Below, piece after piece: positions 1-29,779 of a DNA stretch of 32,000 bases. The notes under the pieces were generated by a model. The model made no database searches and was not told where the DNA came from. It saw only the letters and a list, made by a program, of their open reading frames with translations. Position numbers and translations under genes: made by a program. Origin of the DNA: Candidatus Methanoperedens sp. (GTDB lineage Archaea; Halobacteriota; Methanosarcinia; Methanosarcinales; Methanoperedenaceae); the NCBI GenBank assembly GCA_041494705.1, contig JBGQBI010000001.1, positions 210,001-242,000 of the forward strand, read 5' to 3'. Numbering within the stretch: position 1 is the stretch's first letter; the number at the start of each line of letters is the position of its first letter.

Positions 1-833
1 ACCTCACCGAGTGTCATATCCTCGCCGCCTGAGATATGTACCAGCACCCCGTATGTTCCCGAGATGTCAGAGACATCAAGGAGCGGCGTGGAAAGCGCCT
101 GTTCCATTGCCTTCTCAATGCGGTTTTCGCCTTCTGCCTCGCCTATGCCGATTGCGGATATGCCGCCCCGTTCCACAACGCTTCGCAGGTCTGAGTAGTC
201 AAGGTTCACAAGGCTTGCCTGCGTGATTGTTTCGGTTATGTTCCTGATAAAATTGCCAACAAATTCATTCGCTACCGCAAAACCTTCACGGAGCGGGAGA
301 GTGCCTGCAATGGCTCTCAGTCTTGAATTGTCTATAACTACCAGGGAATCGCATCTGTCAGCAAGAGCTTTTATGCCGAAAATCGCCTTCTTGCGCCTTA
401 AAACTTCATAGCCGAACGGGAGGGTAACACAACCTATCGTCAGAATCCCGGCTTCACGTATGGCCTCGGCGATTACAGGCGCCGCTCCTGTTCCCGAACC
501 TCCACCCATGCCTGCGATAATGAATACAAGGTTTGAATCCAAAAGTTCTTTTTTTATTTCGTTAAGGCTCTCCCGTGCAGCTTCAGTGCCTCGTTCTGCA
601 AAACCGCCGCAGCCCTTCCCCTGATAGGTTTGCTCACCAAGGAGTATTTTCACATCGGCTTTTACAACCATCAAATGCGTTGCATCAGTATCAGCCGCAA
701 TTATTTTACTTCCCACTATCTCTTTTTGCGCTATCCATGAAACGATATTGCATCCCGCACCGCCAAGACCGATTATTGCCACGGTGGGTTTTGCTGCGTT
801 TGCAAGTTCGGAAATTCGTGAATCGAGTGTCAT
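1..833 (-). CDS. ftsZ: Cell division GTPase FtsZ (tubulin/FtsZ family), N-terminal ~277 codons; C-terminus lies beyond the window start
   Basis: Minus-strand frame is open from the window edge to the ATG at 833-831. Translation reads MTLDSRISELANAAKPTVAIIGLGGAGCNIVSW...DSNLVFIIAGMGGGSGTGAAPVIAEAIREAGILTIGCVTLPFGYE, showing the GGAGxN and GGGxGTG tubulin-signature loops. Absent from the ORF track because it has no in-window stop. Confidence 0.85.
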   Translation of the reverse strand, partial: MTLDSRISELANAAKPTVAIIGLGGAGCNIVSWIAQKEIVGSKIIAADTDATHLMVVKADVKILLGEQTYQGKGCGGFAERGTEAARESLNEIKKELLDSNLVFIIAGMGGGSGTGAAPVIAEAIREAGILTIGCVTLPFGYEVLRRKKAIFGIKALADRCDSLVVIDNSRLRAIAGTLPLREGFAVANEFVGNFIRNITETITQASLVNLDYSDLRSVVERGGISAIGIGEAEGENRIEKAMEQALSTPLLDVSDISGTYGVLVHISGGEDMTLGE

Positions 834-961
834 TTATGTACCTCTTTTATATTTTTGTTACGAAGACCTACTTATATTATATCCTTCATAAGATTATATT
901 TATCTCACTAATCCGCCATCATAAGATATATAACCCTTATTCAATAAGATTGCCAGGAACA

Positions 962-2200
962 ATGAGCAAAATAATCCTCGACCCCAACATCAAATACCTC
1001 GAAGGCACGCAGCGCGTCTTTGACCCGGAAACAACGCTTGCCAACACCACAAAGCTTCTTCCTGAAATCGGGGTGACGCGCATTGCGAACATCACAGACC
1101 TTGACCGCGTGGGCATTCCGGTTTTCTCAGCTATCAGGCCGAGCGCTGCGGCGGGAGCAATATCCATATACTCAGGAAAGGGAGCAACCGAGACCAATGC
1201 GAGGATATCCGCAATCATGGAAAGTTTTGAGCGCTGCCTTGCGGAGCAGCCCGAGGTCAGCATCAACCTCGGCGGAATTGAGCTTGGAACCGAAAGAGTG
1301 GCAGATACATACGAATCGCTCAGCGAGAGCTATCCCACATTATATCCGGATGCTCTTCTTTTGCCCCAGCCTCTGGCTGAGTTCACGAGCCTTGAATGGG
1401 TCAAGGGGGATGACATAATGAACGATGTTGAAGTGTTCGTGCCGGAAAATGCAGTTTTTCACCCATACAACCCACAAAACGGAAACAAGCTTTTCAGAAG
1501 CAACACCAACGGGCTTGCATCAGGAAATACAATTGAGGAGGCGGTGCTCCACGGCTTGCTTGAAGTAGTAGAAAGGGACGCGCTCAGCATTGCGGAATTC
1601 ACACGCAATCCCGGCAGGGAAATCGTGCTTTCTGAGAGCGATGGGCTGAATTACGAATTGAAACGGAAAATGGAAGAAGCAGGAATCAAGGTCAAGGTCT
1701 GGCTGCTTGGCTCTGATGTGGATATTCCCACAGTCGTTACCGCGCTTGATGATACTGTCCTGAAAGACCCCGCTTTGCTGGTCATGGGAGCAGGTGCGCA
1801 TCTCTCGCCTGAGATAGCGGTAACACGGGCGCTCACCGAGGCAGCGCAGAGCCGTGTGGTCCAGATACATGGCGCGCGCGAGGATACGGACAGGGAGCAG
1901 GTGGTGCGGACATTCGGCTATGACCACATGAAAAAGATGAACAGCTACTGGTATGAGGAGCTGGAGCCCGTCCGGATGGATGATTTGAAAGACGGTTCAG
2001 GCGATACCCCGGCAGCCAACATTAAAACAGTGCTTGAGCGCCTTGATGGAATTGCAGATGGCGCTATTATCGTTAATCTTTCAAGGGGTGTGGAAATTCC
2101 GGTTGTCAGGGCAATTATTCCCATGTTTGAACTCTATACGCTTGACCGCGAGAGAAAGGGTGAGCGCATCAAGAAAAAGAAGAAGAGAGTGGCGCGATGA
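962..2200 (+). CDS. ycaO: YcaO-family ATP-dependent amide-activating enzyme (methanogenesis marker 1 type; McrA thioglycine-forming enzyme)
   Basis: Same frame as track ORF 575..2200, trimmed to the ATG at 962 because the upstream part is antisense to ftsZ and its promoter. Contains SGKGATETNARISAIMESFER, SNTNGLASGNTIEEAVLHGLLEVVERDA and a C-terminal PMFELYTLD region. A TfuA partner gene lies downstream. Confidence 0.9.
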   Translation: MSKIILDPNIKYLEGTQRVFDPETTLANTTKLLPEIGVTRIANITDLDRVGIPVFSAIRPSAAAGAISIYSGKGATETNARISAIMESFERCLAEQPEVSINLGGIELGTERVADTYESLSESYPTLYPDALLLPQPLAEFTSLEWVKGDDIMNDVEVFVPENAVFHPYNPQNGNKLFRSNTNGLASGNTIEEAVLHGLLEVVERDALSIAEFTRNPGREIVLSESDGLNYELKRKMEEAGIKVKVWLLGSDVDIPTVVTALDDTVLKDPALLVMGAGAHLSPEIAVTRALTEAAQSRVVQIHGAREDTDREQVVRTFGYDHMKKMNSYWYEELEPVRMDDLKDGSGDTPAANIKTVLERLDGIADGAIIVNLSRGVEIPVVRAIIPMFELYTLDRERKGERIKKKKKRVAR

Positions 2201-2400
2201 AAAACTTTACGAAAGTTTTTTCAAAAACCTTTGAGAAAGGTTTATCAAAAAGGTTTGAAACCTTTAGCAAAGACAACACGTATGCTTCCGCATACGTGGA
2301 CACGCCCTCCCGTTCGCAAAGCGTGTCGAAGACAGGCGTGACTCGGGAAGGGTATGCGAAGCATACCCTATACCGCATAAAGCGAGGTTTCGCTTTATGA
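2197..2400 (+). other. Hairpin-dense ~200-bp spacer between ycaO and tfuA that is also a 67-codon ORF with ATGA overlaps at both ends; nature unresolved (structured RNA, palindromic insertion or small basic protein)
   Basis: Seven short perfect inverted repeats tile the segment (coordinates in findings). The reading frame MKNFTKVFSK...RIKRGFAL is uninterrupted. Its ATG (2197-2199) overlaps the ycaO TGA (2198-2200), and its TGA (2398-2400) overlaps the tfuA ATG (2397-2399). Confidence 0.4.
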
Positions 2401-3041
2401 AGCCTGTGGTGTACACAGGCACGAGCATAAGCCACGACGAGGCAAGAAAGATACTGGATGCTGATTATCGCCCGCCCGTGAGGCGCCATGATATCAGGAG
2501 GCTTATGAAGTCGCCGCCAGATATAATAGGGATTATAGACGGGGTTTTCTTTGACAGCGCGGCAGTAGCGCACCGCGAAATAATCGAGGCGCTAAAAACT
2601 GGCATAACCGTTGTCGGCGGCGCAAGCATGGGCGCGCTACGGGCTTCTGAACTTGAGCCTTACGGGATGATAGGCGTGGGGAAGATATACGAGATGTACA
2701 AAAATGGGAACCTGGAATCTGATGATGAGGTTGCGGTGACCTTCGATGGTGAAACGCTGGAGCCGCTTTCAGTACCTCTTGTGAATGTCAGGATGACCGT
2801 TGAGCTTGGGCGGGAAATGGGTGTTTTTACAAAGGAACAGGCTTCTGCCATTGTGGATATTACCAGGAAAATATTCTATCCCGAGAGGAACTATTGGAAT
2901 ATTATCCACGAATGTGTGAAAAACGGGGTCATCGGGGATTCGGAGAAGAATATATTGCTTGAGTTTTTTAAATTGAATGAAGTGGATGTGAAGCGGCAGG
3001 ATGCGGTTCTTGTGCTTGAGAAGATAAAAGAATTGTCGTGA
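2397..3041 (+). CDS. tfuA: TfuA-like protein (YcaO partner for thioamide formation)
   Basis: Contains MKPVVYTGTSISHDEARKILDADYRPPVRRHDI...IIGIIDGVFFDSAAVAHREIIEALKTGITVVGGASMGALRASEL...ESDDEVAV, the typical TfuA core. Located downstream of ycaO. Confidence 0.88.
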   Translation: MKPVVYTGTSISHDEARKILDADYRPPVRRHDIRRLMKSPPDIIGIIDGVFFDSAAVAHREIIEALKTGITVVGGASMGALRASELEPYGMIGVGKIYEMYKNGNLESDDEVAVTFDGETLEPLSVPLVNVRMTVELGREMGVFTKEQASAIVDITRKIFYPERNYWNIIHECVKNGVIGDSEKNILLEFFKLNEVDVKRQDAVLVLEKIKELS

Positions 3042-3043
3042 AT

Positions 3044-4210
3044 ATGAACTATGATGTCATTGTTATCGGTGCAGGTCCGGCAGGCGCGATAGCAGCAAGA
3101 TATGCCGCCCTGAACGGCGCCAGCACCCTTCTGATAGAGGAACACGCAAGCATCGGCTCACCAGTCCAGTGCACAGGTCTCATAAGCACGGCGGCGCTCA
3201 ACGAATGCGAGATAGGGGAAGGAAGTTTTGTCCTGAATAAGATGAAGGGCGCTTTTGTGTATGCCCCGAACGGTGAAGAACTTATTGTGAGGGGAAAAAA
3301 TGTAAAAGCGTATGTCATAGACAGGAAAATCTTTGACAGGGTGCTTGTTGAGCGTTCACTGGATGAAGGGGCTGATATACTTTTAAAAACACGTTTCATT
3401 GGCATGGATAAGGGGAAAATCTCTGTGATATCTGATGGTGAGCGAAAGGAAATTCATGCCTCAGTTGTTATCGCGGCAGACGGGATACAAAGCAGCGTTG
3501 GCAGGGCAGCAGGATTGGGACGGTGTGAAAAATTTTTATCAGGAATCCAGTTTGAAGCCCCTTATGCAGCAAAAGATTCTGAATACGTGGAGATATTCAC
3601 AGGGAACGAAATCGCTCCGGGATTTTTTGCATGGGCAGTGCCATTTAACGGATTGGCGCGCATCGGTCTTGCCAAGAACCCGGGCGCTAACCCGCCCCTG
3701 CATTACCTTGGGGAATTGTTAAAACACCCGGTTTTAGCCTCAAGATACCGTGGGTCGCGCACCGAGCATGTGCTGGGGGGAATACCGCTCGGCCCGCCCG
3801 GGAAAACGACAGGAAATGGCGTGATGCTTGTCGGGGATGCGGCAGGGCAGGTTAAGCCTACGTCAGGCGGTGGTGTTTATATGGGCGCGGTATGCGCAAA
3901 GATTGCAGGCGAGGTTGCGGCAAAAGCTTCGCGAAAAGAGACAGTCTTGGATGAGTATGAAAAACGATGGCGCAGCGTTGTATATCGGGAACTTTCTATC
4001 GGGATGAGGATTCATAAAAGCTTTAGTAAATTGAGCGATGAAAACCTGAACGAATTTATTTCTTTCCTGAACAAACCCAAAATTAGAGAAATTATCACAG
4101 AATATGGCGACATGGACCATCCTTCCGTACTAATGAAGAAACTCATTCAAAGCGGGGATAAGAAGCAGCTTATTAAATTATTGGGAGTAGCTTTTAAAAC
4201 GCTTTTCTAG
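3044..4210 (+). CDS. FAD-dependent geranylgeranyl reductase family oxidoreductase (digeranylgeranylglycerophospholipid reductase-like)
   Basis: N-terminal Rossmann motif YDVIVIGAGPAGAIAARYAA, followed by VIAADG and LVGDAAGQVKPTSGGG motifs. ATG at 3044 preferred over the track's GTG at 3038, which overlaps the tfuA stop. Confidence 0.8.
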   Translation: MNYDVIVIGAGPAGAIAARYAALNGASTLLIEEHASIGSPVQCTGLISTAALNECEIGEGSFVLNKMKGAFVYAPNGEELIVRGKNVKAYVIDRKIFDRVLVERSLDEGADILLKTRFIGMDKGKISVISDGERKEIHASVVIAADGIQSSVGRAAGLGRCEKFLSGIQFEAPYAAKDSEYVEIFTGNEIAPGFFAWAVPFNGLARIGLAKNPGANPPLHYLGELLKHPVLASRYRGSRTEHVLGGIPLGPPGKTTGNGVMLVGDAAGQVKPTSGGGVYMGAVCAKIAGEVAAKASRKETVLDEYEKRWRSVVYRELSIGMRIHKSFSKLSDENLNEFISFLNKPKIREIITEYGDMDHPSVLMKKLIQSGDKKQLIKLLGVAFKTLF

Positions 4211-4288: not shown

Positions 4289-5086
4289 ATGACAGAAGGC
4301 CTTACAATACTCGGTAAAACGGTATTTGATACGCTCTTCATTGATTGGAGAATAATGGTTATTACGGCGATTATTTCCGTAATCCTGTTCCTTGCAGGAA
4401 TGTACATACAACTGGACAAATGGGGACGCGGAATCCCCGAAGGCGCAACAAAACCCATCGGCGCGTGGGGCGCCCTCAAATTAATATTCGGCAAAGTATT
4501 TGAGAAAGGCATTGGGGCGGCTCTTGGAATATTAATCCTGGACGTTCTGTTCCAGCGCAGGACATACAGGCGCAGGAAGCTTGAATGGTTCATGCACATT
4601 TTGATATTCTGGGGATGGATTGGGCTCTTGATTTTGACAATTGTTGCGGCAGCGGCTGAGTTTGCCGGTCCGTTCTTGTTAAATCAGAACTACACGTACT
4701 TTGTGGGTGTATGGAAATCCCTTGAACTGCCAAACAACATATTCGGATATATGATTGTTCTGGGCATAGTTATTGCAATAGCAAGAAGACTCTTCTCAAC
4801 TGGCAAAGATGTCCAGGCGCGAAACGCTGATGTTGACTGGATACTTATTATTGGTTTGTTAATTGTGGTTGTTACAGGATTTTATGCCCAGTACCTGCGC
4901 ACAGACGTTTATCAGGTAAGCAGGGAATTAGTCTCGGCATATCCAATGGGACTATTTGATAACTTCACTGTAATGTTCCACGAAATCTTCACACTGCTTT
5001 TCTGCGTGGCATACCTTCCGTACAGTAAATACTTCCACATGATAACCGCGCCCCTCACAATTCTTGTGAACCACGGAGGCGAGTAA
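4289..5086 (+). CDS. hdrE: Membrane b-type cytochrome subunit of heterodisulfide reductase (HdrE/NarI-like)
   Basis: About 5 predicted TM helices with conserved His in helices ([33 protein letters not shown]) and a LDKWGRG loop. Lies immediately upstream of an HdrD-type gene with a 2-nt gap. Confidence 0.7.
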
Positions 5087-5088
5087 AA

Positions 5089-6471
5089 ATGGCAAAAGAG
5101 AAACCTTCAATAAACACAGTTAATTTCACAGCGTCGCAGTTAATGGAATTTGATGCTTGCACGCGATGCGGCGAATGTGTCAAGTACTGCCCGACATACG
5201 ATGCAAGGGATAAGAACCAGGATATTGAGCCAAGGGATAAGATTCTGCGGTGGCGCGACTTCATGAACAGGAGCTTTGGTCTCAAAGCGAGAATTTTCGG
5301 GCCGGATAAAATCCCACCTGAGGAAATAAAGAAGTACACGGATGACCTTTATAACTGTACAACATGCGGGATGTGCGGGACGGTTTGTCCGGCGGGTATT
5401 AATACCATTGAACTGTGGGAATCAACACGCGCGAACCTTGTCAAACACGGAACAGGTCCATACGGGAAACAGAGCCTTTTCCCCAAACTCATAGAAGAAG
5501 GGCATAACCCGTACATGAAGCAGCAAAAAGACCGACTTGCATGGATGACGCCGGATATCAAGATAGCGGATAAATCCGATATAGCGTATTTCATAGGATG
5601 CACCGCAGGGTATAACCAGCAGGTGCTGGGTGTCAGCACGGCAAGGATATTGAACAAACTGAACGTGCCGTTCATGGTTCTTGGAGAGGACGAATGGTGC
5701 TGCAGTTCGGCTCTTATAAGGACAGGACAGCAGCATATCAATGATACCCCGAAGAAAGCTGCAATCCATAACGTTGAAGCGTTGAAGGCAAAGGGTGCCA
5801 AGAGAGTTATATTTGCATGTGCAGGATGTTTCAGGGCAGCAAAAATTGACTGGCCTCGCGCATATGGAAAACCATTGCCATTTGAAGCCATCCACATGTC
5901 GCAGTTCCTTGCAGAGCAGGTTGAGGCTGGAAAGATAAAGTGGGAAAAGAGCCTGAACAAGACCGTTACTTATCATGACCCGTGCCACCTTGGAAGGCAT
6001 GTAGGTGTCTTCGAAGAACCCAGGAAGGTCATAAAGAGCATGCCGGGCATCAAACTCGTTGAAATGAAACGCAACCGCAAGGAACAGCGGTGCTGCGGCG
6101 CAGGCGGAGGCGTGAAGGCAGGCATTCCCGACCTTGCGCTGGGCGTGGCGAAGGCGCGTGTCACCGATGCAAAGGAAACAGGCGCAGAGGCATTGATAAG
6201 CACATGCCCGTTCTGCAGGCGCAACCTCCTTGATGGCAGGGATGACCTCAAACTGGATATGAGCGTGGATGACCTCGTGGTCCTGACCGCACATCTTATG
6301 GGTCTCTCCACTGATGTCAAGCAGCCCGCGCCAGGCGCTCCAAAGGAATCAATCAGCGACCTGTTCAGGACGCAGACCATTCCGCCCAAGCCGCCGGCTG
6401 AACCGAAGAAGGAAGAGCCAAAAGCTGCGGCGCCGAAGGCGGATGCGCCCAAAGCAGCTCCCAAGAAGTAG
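5089..6471 (+). CDS. hdrD: Heterodisulfide reductase subunit D (2x[4Fe-4S] plus two CCG domains) with an extra Pro/Ala/Lys/Glu-rich C-terminal tail
   Basis: Contains [12 protein letters not shown] and [12 protein letters not shown] ferredoxin motifs. CCG-domain cysteines are present (CAGCF; QRCCGAGGG; STCPFC). The tail reads [29 protein letters not shown]. Confidence 0.85.
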
Positions 6472-8096: not shown

Positions 8097-8168
8097 TGGA
8101 CCCGGCGGGATTCGAACCCGCGGCCTTTGCGTTGCGAACGCAACGATCTACCCCTGATCTACAGGCCC
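8097..8168 (-). tRNA. tRNA-Ala (anticodon CGC), no encoded CCA
   Basis: Reverse complement is GGGCCTGTAGATCAGGGGTAGATCGTTGCGTTCGCAACGCAAAGGCCGCGGGTTCGAATCCCGCCGGGTCCA, which folds into a cloverleaf. Acceptor is GGGCCTG/CGGGTCC with the G3:U70 alanine identity pair. D stem is GATC/GATC, the anticodon stem TTGCG/CGCAA has loop TTCGCAA, and the T arm is GCGGG-TTCGAAT-CCCGC. Confidence 0.92.
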
Positions 8169-29749: not shown

Positions 29750-29779
29750 ATGTACATCTAATGTACATTCAATGTACAT
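29750..29779. promoter_or_regulatory. Three copies of the 8-bp palindrome ATGTACAT at exact 11-bp phasing (iterons/operator)
   Basis: Copies at 29750-29757, 29761-29768 and 29772-29779. Lies between the Rep-like stop (29631) and the ATG at 29793. Confidence 0.65.

Follow-up and report, generated by a model that had tools for sequence, protein, structure and literature searches.

Why should two genes that normally overlap be held apart by some 200 nucleotides built of inverted repeats, and why should those nucleotides be readable without a stop from one gene to the next? This question is raised by the ycaO/tfuA junction in the 32-kb stretch of Candidatus Methanoperedens DNA that was analyzed here (hereafter the window). 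A sequence-only reading of the window had described the hairpin block and its bridging open reading frame (ORF), and had offered three explanations: an RNA switch setting the YcaO:TfuA ratio, a palindromic MITE-like insertion kept in frame, and a small peptide co-produced with YcaO and TfuA. Our analysis confirms the observation itself and partly supports the interpretation. We consider it likely that positions 2197-2400 belong to a family of non-autonomous palindromic repeats, mosaic in build and present in many copies in Methanoperedens, the bridging ORF of which would serve to relay ribosomes.

Layout of the ycaO/tfuA junction

All features discussed lie on the plus strand. The upstream gene in the ORF list, ycaO (962-2200; 412 aa), matches Pfam family PF02624 (E = 3e-83), and a YcaO of 412 aa is also called in the NCBI copy of the genome. 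The downstream gene, tfuA (2397-3041; 214 aa), matches PF07812 (E = 2e-45), and its product is 94% identical to a 'TfuA-related McrA-glycine thioamidation protein [Candidatus Methanoperedens sp.]'. Between the two lies a 67-codon ORF (2197-2400) with the same translation as in the sequence-only reading. Its ATG (2197-2199) overlaps the ycaO TGA (2198-2200), which forms the last three bases of a 5' ATGA (2197-2200), and its TGA (2398-2400) overlaps the tfuA ATG (2397-2399) in a 3' ATGA (2397-2400). The filled junction reads ...GCGCG-ATGA-(AAAACTTT...CGCTTT-ATGA)-AGCCTGTG. The inserted repeat element coincides with this ORF: a profile of the minimal family element matches the window in this interval alone, and homology to a copy in another genome (L203) runs from one ATGA to the other.

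The window copy consists of seven modules, the length of each being a multiple of 3 nt. Module a (H1; 2200-2223; 24 nt), the 5' signature of the repeat family, is a AAAAACTTT-ACG-AAAGTTTTT hairpin (inverted repeat 2200-2208/2212-2220). It stands in tandem with modules b and c (2224-2271), two 24-nt AAACCTTT/AAAGGTTT hairpin units that recur in further family copies, and the first three hairpin units are a 24-nt tandem repeat as well. Module b pairs 2225-2232 with 2236-2243. In module c the proposed repeat 2249-2256/2258-2265 is present but not as a full stem, since its 1-nt gap allows at most a 7-bp stem with a 3-nt loop. Module d (2272-2298; 27 nt), a CACGTATGC-TTCC-GCATACGTG hairpin (2277-2285/2290-2298; -14.2 kcal/mol), is common to the copies L203, L105 and L006. 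Module e (2299-2346; 48 nt) combines GACACGC...GCGTGTC (2299-2305/2321-2327) with a CCGAG/CTCGG-type unit; other copies have a 27-nt form, 21 nt shorter, and the difference from L203 is an in-frame 21-nt indel. Module f (2347-2373; 27 nt), the central GGGTATGC-GAA-GCATACCC hairpin (2349-2357/2361-2369), belongs to the 27-codon minimal element and shows compensatory stem variants across 28 minimal copies. Module g (2374-2400), the terminal hairpin CATAAAGCGA-GGTT-TCGCTTTATG followed by an A, has a 10-bp stem (2376-2385/2390-2399; -12.8 kcal/mol) that buries the tfuA ATG. This module carries a Shine-Dalgarno (SD)-like GAGGTT (2384-2389) 7 nt ahead of that ATG, contains stops in all three frames, and is both the best conserved part of the family and the last to remain as copies decay. 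Apart from the stem of module c, the hairpins were thus found where the sequence-only reading had placed them, and the bridging ORF with its two ATGA overlaps and the hidden tfuA start are present as it had claimed.

The hairpin packing exceeds chance. The predicted RNA minimum free energy of 2190-2410 is -86.9 kcal/mol, compared to -55.1 +/- 4.6 kcal/mol for 200 dinucleotide shuffles (z = -6.88), none of which was equally stable, and 5 of the 12 distinct perfect hairpins in the window (stem of at least 8 bp, loop of 3-6 nt) fall inside 2197-2400. No Rfam family matched the whole window at the gathering threshold or positions 2100-2500 at E <= 1, and no Pfam family matched the 67-aa ORF or its 104-aa relative. 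Neither assembly of the source genome has a gene call for the 67-aa ORF, and a look-up of the exact product returned no record for it or for the related ORF P0014.

The junction in other Methanoperedens genomes

The sequence-only reading took ycaO and tfuA to be normally adjacent. This holds for Methanoperedens, where the two genes overlap by an ATGA at about 30 loci. The closest relatives (L200, L201, L120 and L121, with TfuA identities of 94%, 90%, 93% and 85%, respectively) show this plain overlap without a spacer, which argues against a spacer specific to YcaO/TfuA, and about 25 further Methanoperedens loci are also spacer-free; all of these, the closest relatives included, read ...AGAGTG....ATGA.GCC.... 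The L200 genome (JAPZAO01) carries the repeat at other loci. These junctions show that in the ancestral arrangement the stop of ycaO and the start of tfuA overlapped in one ATGA, to which the ATGA at 2197-2200 corresponds. Little consequence for McrA thioglycine biology is to be expected: the spacer in the window arrived recently as a passenger, and both proteins, YcaO and TfuA, are intact.

In a more distant clade (TfuA identity of 67-70%) the element is also found between ycaO and tfuA, in states ranging from intact to remnant. The hairpins decay in this clade and the terminal unit alone is retained; at the loci L152 and L157 the C-terminus of YcaO now consists of the terminal unit of the element (...KKRVIKRGAAL-stop). 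A 261-nt MITE nested in frame at L155 and L037 was considered as proof of selection and set aside as weak, because its length is a multiple of 3 by construction and one of three frames is open, giving a chance probability of about 1/3 to 1/6.

Copies at unrelated gene junctions

Searches of the window with three hairpin patterns (up to 3 mismatches) and with an nhmmer profile of the minimal element gave no other copy. In Methanoperedens genomes, about 36 unrelated junctions between genes carry the same hairpin-module mosaic, which speaks against locus specificity. These junctions include rpl32e/rpl19e, pycA/birA, the regions upstream of rps9 and argH, and trpD-like and pheS junctions, the genes downstream of the copies being housekeeping genes. 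The window copy and the rpl32e/rpl19e copy of another genome (L203) are about 95% identical and have unrelated flanks, the homology starting and stopping at the two ATGAs of the window. Fifteen small ORFs called in some assemblies (P0001-P0015) are mosaics of the same modules.

A search of GTDB genomes for the 5' hairpin pattern gave at least 113 matching stretches, of which about 104 come from Methanoperedens or Methanoperedenaceae MAGs (about 20 MAGs, a single one having at least 21 such stretches). Matches in Saprospiraceae, Pirellulaceae, Bathyarchaeia and others were set aside as chance or unrelated palindromes because the other modules are missing, and a single match in a viral contig was attributed to chance, this being an AT-rich phage contig without any other module. 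The family comprises at least 8 kinds of hairpin module in variable order and number, with copies of 80-311 nt and encoded lengths that range, through module shuffling, from 27 to 114 codons. Tandem copies were found at L003, L030, L050 and L077. Family modules were also observed nested inside other repeat families. In the searchable literature on Methanoperedens (MITE, palindromic or hairpin repeats) we found no description of these repeats.

Position at start codons and the open frame

Family statistics were derived from 58 distinct copies defined at the DNA level. The copies sit in sense orientation with the 3' ATGA as the start codon of a gene: in 49 of them TTTATGA closes the copy and its ATG opens an ORF of 60 codons or more, and in 26 an ORF of that minimum length runs up to the copy from upstream and terminates in the 5' ATGA. 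The share of copies at gene starts is 84%, compared to a rough neutral expectation of 21% for non-coding ATGA, a crude baseline taken from longest-ORF starts in one 32-kb window. Selection or targeting could account for this enrichment, each by itself or both together. The upstream flanks of the copies are rich in G from -12 to -5, and the native, G-rich ribosome-binding region of the gene lies just 5' of the 5' ATGA.

The distance from ATG to ATG is 2 mod 3 in 48 of the 58 copies. Frame 0 is stop-free from the 5' ATG to the 3' TGA in 47 copies (about 80%), the corresponding numbers for sense frames 1 and 2 being 0 and 6, and the in-frame copies have 19 different lengths. In seven frame-broken copies at genes, reading continues to 6-16 nt from the ATG of the gene because the terminal hairpin holds stops in all frames.

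A proposed ribosome relay through the element

We propose that a ribosome ending at the ycaO UGA, or one using the native ribosome-binding site, would start at the AUG of the element and translate it, melting the hairpins including the terminal stem over the tfuA AUG. Termination at the UGA within the 3' AUGA would follow, and then re-initiation on tfuA at the usual -4 spacing, for which the terminal hairpin would supply the SD-like GAGGU(G/U) 7 nt before the tfuA AUG. The encoded peptide would be a by-product of this relay. Passage of ribosomes through the bridging ORF would leave the element nearly neutral for expression at start codons, so that it could persist there. Once the untranslated spacing exceeds about 30-40 nt, coupling is reported to be lost (PMC12548453), and a 200-nt spacer would therefore need the bridging ORF.

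The best surviving alternative, which we nonetheless regard as quite unlikely, keeps the same repeat and assigns no function to its open frame: young copies would inherit the frame of the founder, and tfuA, like the other downstream genes, would be initiated directly on the SD-like loop of the terminal hairpin, with no relay. Frame preservation could indeed be partly inherited rather than selected, because the copies are related by descent and a TTTATCAAA junction motif brackets the modules in constant phase, so that recombination at these junctions keeps the frame. The orthologous out-of-frame copies L022, L075 and L088, which still differ from one another by multiples of 3, agree with such a history. 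Against inheritance alone stand the near confinement of the stop-free state to frame 0 across 19 length classes and the ATGAAAAAAC variants with a longer central stem, where +1 changes are offset by +2 changes within single copies. About 17% of the copies are out of frame and persist ahead of genes, as a dispensable frame would allow, but even the frame-broken ones are read almost up to the ATG of the gene. Direct initiation, for its part, is favoured by terminal hairpins of type 1, with GAGGTG 7 nt upstream of the ATG, and by the lack of an upstream overlapping gene in about half of the copies; it is disfavoured by the location of the ATG inside the 10-bp stem. Gain and loss of modules occur in situ and change the length by multiples of 3 nt.

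Stems, peptide and readings specific to this locus

In the three hairpins of the 28 minimal copies, 6 pairs show double compensatory changes and 1 shows a one-sided change, with the central peptide varying freely among copies. The stems are almost all perfect Watson-Crick, and their mismatches comprise 7 G.T versus 11 A.C; in the absence of an excess of G.T over A.C, an action of the hairpins as RNA rather than DNA is not indicated.

That a structured RNA particular to this junction, whether a switch, an attenuator or a processing site, adjusts the YcaO:TfuA ratio is very improbable. This reading would draw on the very stable predicted fold (z = -6.9), on the sequestration of the tfuA AUG by the terminal stem, and on the presence of the element at the same junction in a second Methanoperedens clade, but in that very clade the hairpins decay and the terminal unit alone is kept. 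Moreover, the element is missing from the closest relatives and from about 30 orthologous ycaO/tfuA junctions, the same sequence stands at about 36 unrelated ones, and Rfam gave no match even at E <= 1, which is not what is expected of a ycaO-tfuA cis-regulatory RNA or riboswitch. Were the ratio affected at all, this would be incidental to a generic element, and a locus-specific ycaO/tfuA device is already refuted. Since the same mosaic occurs at many unrelated start codons, 2197-2400 is neither a switch nor a peptide gene specific to ycaO/tfuA. Scarcely credible is the remaining proposal, in which the product of the 67-aa ORF is a small basic peptide with a function, perhaps as a YcaO/TfuA substrate akin to a RiPP precursor: the ORF is open, coupled to both enzyme genes and probably translated, and some assemblies list related ORFs as genes, but these lie at ribosomal-protein, biotin, arginine and other loci and not beside YcaO, the peptide varies in length with module shuffling and in sequence where the stems covary, the closest relatives lack it, and neither a Pfam family nor a gene call in the source genome attends it. 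By its distribution this reading is already refuted. Judged by the refutation criteria of the sequence-only reading itself, the switch and the peptide both fail.

Probable mobility and possible targeting

The empty and filled sites, together with near-identical copies in unrelated flanks, suggest that the repeat with its putative relay belongs to a mobile family. The two flanking ATGAs fit either a 4-bp target duplication or an insertion 3' of an ATGA target by a hairpin-recognizing enzyme. In about 0.7 Mb of loci we found no transposase, autonomous partner, link to TnpA or parent IS, and no pair of element ends enclosing a gene; the search for an autonomous parent, with ends more than 420 nt apart around a gene, gave only contig run-offs and truncated or degenerate 3' ends. 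The two ends of the element, ATGAAAAACTTT... and ...CGCTTTATGA, do not form an inverted pair. Terminal inverted repeats are thus missing and the term MITE is apt only in a loose sense; so qualified, a palindromic MITE-like insertion kept in frame is the one proposal of the sequence-only reading that our data support.

A bolder idea, which we offer tentatively as somewhat unlikely, is that these cassettes actively home to ATGA start codons and stop/start overlaps, where their insertion would turn initiation that was free or loosely coupled into obligatory termination-reinitiation, the host having perhaps co-opted some of them to adjust the stoichiometry of subunits or enzymes in ribosomal-protein operons and in ycaO-tfuA. 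Just as speculatively, each cassette might be a complete relay: it would bring an AUG of its own, a frame without stops and an SD-like loop, and its hairpin would conceal the AUG of the gene until opened by a translating ribosome. If true, this would be the first archaeal counterpart of the mycobacterial MIRUs and possibly a new targeting mechanism.

Implications

For annotation, the repeats yield spurious 'hypothetical proteins' such as P0001-P0015 and can lengthen neighbouring genes. They also break MAG assemblies, many contigs terminating within them. The family provides natural experiments on archaeal translational coupling: stretches of 80-311 nt made of strong hairpins, placed exactly on the start codon, are tolerated at about 36 junctions, among them those of essential genes for ribosomal proteins and aminoacyl-tRNA synthetases. 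Should the relay model be true, the repeat would be a selfish element built to be invisible to gene expression and a portable coupling cassette, and it would bring to archaea a phenomenon so far described for mycobacteria.

Comparison with known repeat families

Like MITEs and PATEs, the element is small, non-autonomous and multi-copy, with empty and filled sites. It agrees with classical MITEs in being small (80-311 nt) and multi-copy (at least 113 stretches), in encoding no transposase and in its flanking direct repeats (ATGA on both sides), and departs from them in having no terminal inverted repeats that match a parent IS. It resembles the IS200/IS605-derived PATEs in its hairpins near both ends, the absence of terminal inverted repeats and a constant tetranucleotide (ATGA) by the ends, which may be a duplicated target or part of the element. 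To our knowledge, neither MITEs nor PATEs show a strict tie to start codons and an open frame.

REPs are associated with a RAYT (IS200/IS605-like Y1) gene; no such gene was noticed in the loci examined here. Like the REP/BIME repeats (REPIN-RAYT) of enterobacteria and pseudomonads, the Methanoperedens element is made of short, hairpin-forming palindromic units in mosaics, with many copies per genome, often between co-transcribed genes of one operon. In contrast, REP/BIME repeats are extragenic, usually follow stop codons, and are not known to have a bridging ORF or a tie to start codons (see also PMC3184786). The RPEs (Rickettsia palindromic elements; Ogata et al. 2000), listed in PMC3184786, are palindromic repeats compatible with translation that persist in frame, as do the present copies, and the terminal unit that became the YcaO C-terminus in L152 and L157 is an RPE-like outcome. 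However, RPEs sit inside protein-coding genes and add a peptide segment, whereas the Methanoperedens copies are nearly all intergenic with a separate, coupled ORF.

The closest known analogue is the MIRU (mycobacterial interspersed repetitive units) of Supply et al. 1997, summarized in PMC12548453 and PMC3184786. The likeness is one of layout, homology in sequence not being expected for an archaeal host. Both are short interspersed repeats within operons, oriented as the genes, present in dozens of copies per genome and also in tandem, and both contain a small ORF that overlaps the preceding stop at one end and the following start at the other (-4 nt, NTGA). We know of no transposase gene for MIRUs. 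They are GC-rich units of 40-100 bp, in contrast to the mosaic of perfect-hairpin modules described here, with its conserved 5' hairpin and a 3' hairpin that buries the start codon. MIRUs are described as entering start codons and carrying an ORF that is coupled at -4 nt (PMC12548453), and as having tetranucleotide direct repeats on both sides as well as empty and filled sites (PMC3184786). The Methanoperedens element correspondingly shows the features of a MIRU-like functional class, namely a sense position at start codons, an internal ORF in a coupled arrangement, and flanking tetranucleotides, with ATGA on both sides of the filled site and a single ATGA at the empty sites of about 30 related ycaO/tfuA junctions.

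Structure of the spacer

In the window, ycaO (962-2200; Pfam YcaO, E = 3e-83; stop TGA at 2198-2200) and tfuA (2397-3041; Pfam TfuA, E = 2e-45) are joined by a bridging frame of 67 codons, which runs from an ATG at 2197 to a TGA at 2398-2400 that the tfuA ATG overlaps. The sequence-only reading had described this frame, its translation and its overlaps with the ycaO stop and the tfuA start, all of which matched the sequence, and an inverted-repeat search found its seven inverted repeats exactly where it had placed them, with the tfuA ATG inside the terminal 10-bp stem. The minimum free energy of the RNA from 2190 to 2410 is −86.9 kcal/mol, compared to −55.1±4.6 kcal/mol in dinucleotide shuffles (z = −6.9), and of the 12 perfect hairpins (stems ≥8 bp) that the 32-kb window contains, 5 fall within these 200 bp. 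The spacer consists of seven modules of 24, 24, 24, 27, 48, 27 and 27 nt, the first three of which also form a 24-nt tandem repeat. The identical sequence occurs in two independent assemblies (a 293-kb JGI metagenome contig and NCBI GCA_041489935.1), which rules out an assembly artefact. Searches with hairpin patterns and a profile found no further copies within the 32-kb window.

The ycaO start at 962 (412 aa) is backed by the NCBI call and by alignments; the JGI call gives 454 aa and a mechanical ORF 541 aa (window 575-2200; L001, a metagenome locus, 4440-5804). An antisense ORF of 134 aa (2169-2573) overlaps the element and owes its open frame solely to the palindromic nature of the latter. 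Elsewhere in the window, a non-coding stretch (29750-29779) has three copies of the 8-bp palindrome ATGTACAT, spaced by 11 nt (starts at 29750, 29761 and 29772), which look like a putative array of protein-binding sites. Rfam matched the window only once, at a tRNA gene (8097-8168, minus strand, 68.6 bits).

Empty and occupied sites at the ycaO-tfuA junction

The TfuA protein shares 94% identity with proteins that are labelled as coming from Candidatus Methanoperedens. When the junction was compared among relatives, the spacer proved to be missing: in the closest loci (L200, 94%; L120, 93%; L201, 90%; L121, 85%) and in about 25 more metagenome loci, ycaO and tfuA share a single ATGA. The empty site reads ...AGAGTGCCGAA-ATGA-GGCCTGTG and the filled site of the window ...AGAGTGGCGCG-ATGA-[AAAACTTT...CGCTTT-ATGA]-AGCCTGTG. 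The genome of L200 (JAPZAO01) carries the repeat family at other loci, with its ycaO-tfuA site unoccupied. A second variable spot is the junction of tfuA with the FAD-dependent (geranylgeranyl-reductase-like) gene. The two abut in the window (3038-3044); the close relatives have extra genes there, a nucleotidyltransferase/HepT-like pair in L200 (3222-3877) and a Bro-N protein in L201 (3235-4095).

The ycaO-tfuA junction is also occupied in a more distantly related Methanoperedens clade (TfuA 67-70% identical), where the state of the element varies between loci: an intact minimal copy (L162), an open frame of 81 codons (L148), frames broken at the 5′ end (L150, L153), the terminal hairpin alone, in the last 40 nt before tfuA and read in frame as the YcaO C-terminus (...KKRVIKRGAAL*; L152, L157), and only the remnant GTCGCTTTATGA (L159). 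Element-derived sequence has thus been absorbed into the YcaO protein in L152 and L157. Three further loci (L155, ~270-690; L160; L037, from a GTDB genome, 7172-7520) contain another MITE, a TIR-bearing insertion of ~253 bp with 8-bp direct repeats (TATGCTTC), inside the central hairpin's loop, and even so the bridging frame is open over 114 codons. Clean empty sites are seen in the lineages that lie between this clade and the window, so the window copy is most simply read as a separate and recent insertion, independent of that in the distant clade. What outlasts decay at this junction is the terminal hairpin with its ATGA, a survival that fits a role as the translation-initiation region of tfuA.

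A dispersed family of repeats

Use of the 67-aa ORF as a protein query yielded 15 small called ORFs of 43-104 aa, which are mosaics of its own peptide blocks and lie between rpl32e and rpl19e (two genomes), directly upstream of rps9, between a pycA-like gene and birA, and upstream of argH. The window copy and that at rpl32e-rpl19e in L203 are ~95% identical save for one 21-nt indel, and the similarity is bounded exactly by the two ATGA. Scanning one genome per GTDB species for the 5′ hairpin pattern gave at least 113 stretches, of which, among those listed, ~104 are in ~20 Methanoperedens/Methanoperedenaceae MAGs, at least 21 of them being found in one fragmented MAG; the other modules were not found in the few listed matches outside Methanoperedens. 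Many MAG contigs end within these repeats (L065, L068, L074, L079, L085, L102, L103), and because contigs frequently break there, the MAG copy numbers are lower bounds.

The proposal of a palindromic MITE-like insertion kept in frame was essentially right. An RNA switch setting the YcaO:TfuA ratio and a small peptide co-produced with the pair are both refuted by the near-identical copies at unrelated loci and the spacer-free relatives, which the sequence-only reading had itself named as grounds for abandoning them.

Tandem copies occur in L003 (117-431), L030, L050 and L077 (~4700-4950), where a terminal ...CGCT is followed directly by the AAAACTTT of the next unit or by ATGAGAAAACTTT. Without the ATGA ends, these hairpin modules are also nested centrally in at least three other Methanoperedens palindromic repeat families (CACGGAT/ATCCGTG-rich, CCGCAGATGAACGCAGAT and AACAACGAACTCGTACGAACT; L010, L017, L038, L043, L047, L049, L054-L058, L063, L100, L117 and others), sometimes between short direct repeats (e.g. 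ATGAACGCA on both sides). This nesting suggests that the modules may move or recombine on their own.

Fusion to start codons and conservation of the frame

The minimal element has 27 codons (~84 nt) in three parts: a 5′ hairpin that takes in the ATGA (TGAAAAACTTT-NNG-AAAGTTTTATCA), a central hairpin of the GGGTATGC type, and a terminal hairpin that takes in the ATG of the gene (CATAAAGCGA-GGTG-TCGCTTTATG or CATAAAGGG-GCGTAA-CCCTTTATG). Longer copies have extra hairpin modules in variable order. The copy in L095 (~2808-2920) is truncated at its 3′ end: where the terminal hairpin would stand, the sequence reads ...CCTAAAGGAGGAGAAGAAGGAACCAAAT-ATG, the ATG being that of an ilvC-like gene, so that a normal Shine-Dalgarno sequence takes the place of the terminal unit.

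A census based on DNA only (5′ ATG and hairpin, up to the first TTTATGA) comprised 58 distinct copies at ~36 different junctions, as sorted by flank. In 49 copies the 3′ ATG opens an ORF of ≥60 codons, and in 26 an upstream ORF of that size ends in the 5′ ATGA. The genes that follow the copies are ordinary housekeeping ones (class-III aminotransferase, TrpD-like enzyme, RNA 3′-phosphate cyclase, acetolactate-synthase-like enzyme, class II aldolase, PheRS alpha, MarR-type regulator, ATP-grasp enzyme, rpl19e, rps9, birA, argH, ilvC). Non-coding ATGA on either strand of the window lie 17 times at gene starts and 65 times elsewhere, so that 84% of copies at starts compares with ~21% expected from this crude, window-only baseline. 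Within the 20 nt that precede the 5′ ATGA, positions −12 to −5 are rich in G and correspond to the Shine-Dalgarno region of the gene itself, which places the insertion point at the native start codon.

The distance between the two ATG is 2 mod 3 in 48 of the 58 copies, putting the 3′ TGA in frame. Stops are absent from the bridging frame in 47 copies, from frame 2 in 6 and from frame 1 in none. The in-frame copies have 19 different lengths between 80 and 311 nt. Orthologous copies at other junctions vary by whole modules (rpl19e: 35, 59 and 60 codons; birA: 28, 67 and 69 codons; argH: 83 to 296 nt). Where the frame is broken ahead of a gene (seven copies), reading still comes within 6-16 nt of the gene's ATG, because the terminal hairpin has a stop in each frame.

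RNAalifold on 28 minimal copies gave three hairpins with changes on both sides in 6 pairs and one-sided changes in only 1. The central stem varies (GTATGC/GCATAC, GACGT/ACGTC, GTTCT/AGAAC, GATGT/ACATC, GTATC/GATAC), and the peptide at this position varies freely (EGYALHTLY, QGDVARPLY, QGVLKEPLY, HGVSQIPLY and others). These substitutions preserve complementarity and not amino-acid sequence. The stems are nearly always perfect and show no excess of G.T over A.C mismatches (7 versus 11), so the hairpins may act at either the RNA or the DNA level. The perfection of the palindromes is explained by recent copying, or by arm-to-arm correction, no worse than by selection on the RNA.

Proposed working and movement

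The element thus lies between two ATGA on the start codon in sense orientation; the native RBS precedes its ATG, and its mostly open frame ends on the ATG of the gene. From this arrangement we infer a ribosome relay through the bridging frame onto tfuA. Ribosomes that formerly initiated on tfuA would initiate on the element instead, by the same termination-reinitiation at the ycaO UGA as in the ancestral ATGA overlap. They would read through the element while unfolding its hairpins and end at the 3′ UGA, from where a further re-initiation at −4 nt would bring them onto tfuA. The terminal hairpin also provides an SD-like GAGGT(G/T), 7 nt before the ATG. In both E. coli and Haloferax, coupling is reportedly lost with untranslated spacers longer than ~30-40 nt (review PMC12548453); unless translated, 200 nt inserted into an ATGA overlap would therefore do harm.

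In the ~0.7 Mb of loci analysed, neither a transposase nor an autonomous partner was found. Two models agree equally with the constant ATGA beside the hairpins at both ends and with the lack of terminal inverted repeats: a 4-bp target duplication, and the action of a hairpin-recognising single-strand transposase (IS200/IS605/RAYT type) that inserts 3′ of ATGA.

Comparison with known repeats

For ycaO-tfuA itself the outcome is ordinary, in that a repeat landed there; the interest lies in the family with its pronounced frame-preserving, start-codon-fused architecture. Without terminal inverted repeats the element is no classical MITE, and it resembles RPEs only in the rare cases of a remnant absorbed into YcaO. 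We found no description of these repeats in Methanoperedens in the literature covered, which was that outside subscription journals. By analogy, the closest counterpart is the mycobacterial MIRU, with 40-50 copies of 40-100 bp, empty and filled sites, tetranucleotide direct repeats and an ORF whose ends overlap the adjacent genes (Delihas, PMC3184786). The functional features of MIRUs are all present in the Methanoperedens element, whose tandem copies resemble MIRU-type tandem arrays. It differs from MIRUs in its archaeal host and in its BIME-like make-up, a mosaic of perfect hairpins whose modules are also nested inside other Methanoperedens repeat families; homology is not expected. The family is an archaeal counterpart of the MIRUs, apparently undescribed so far.
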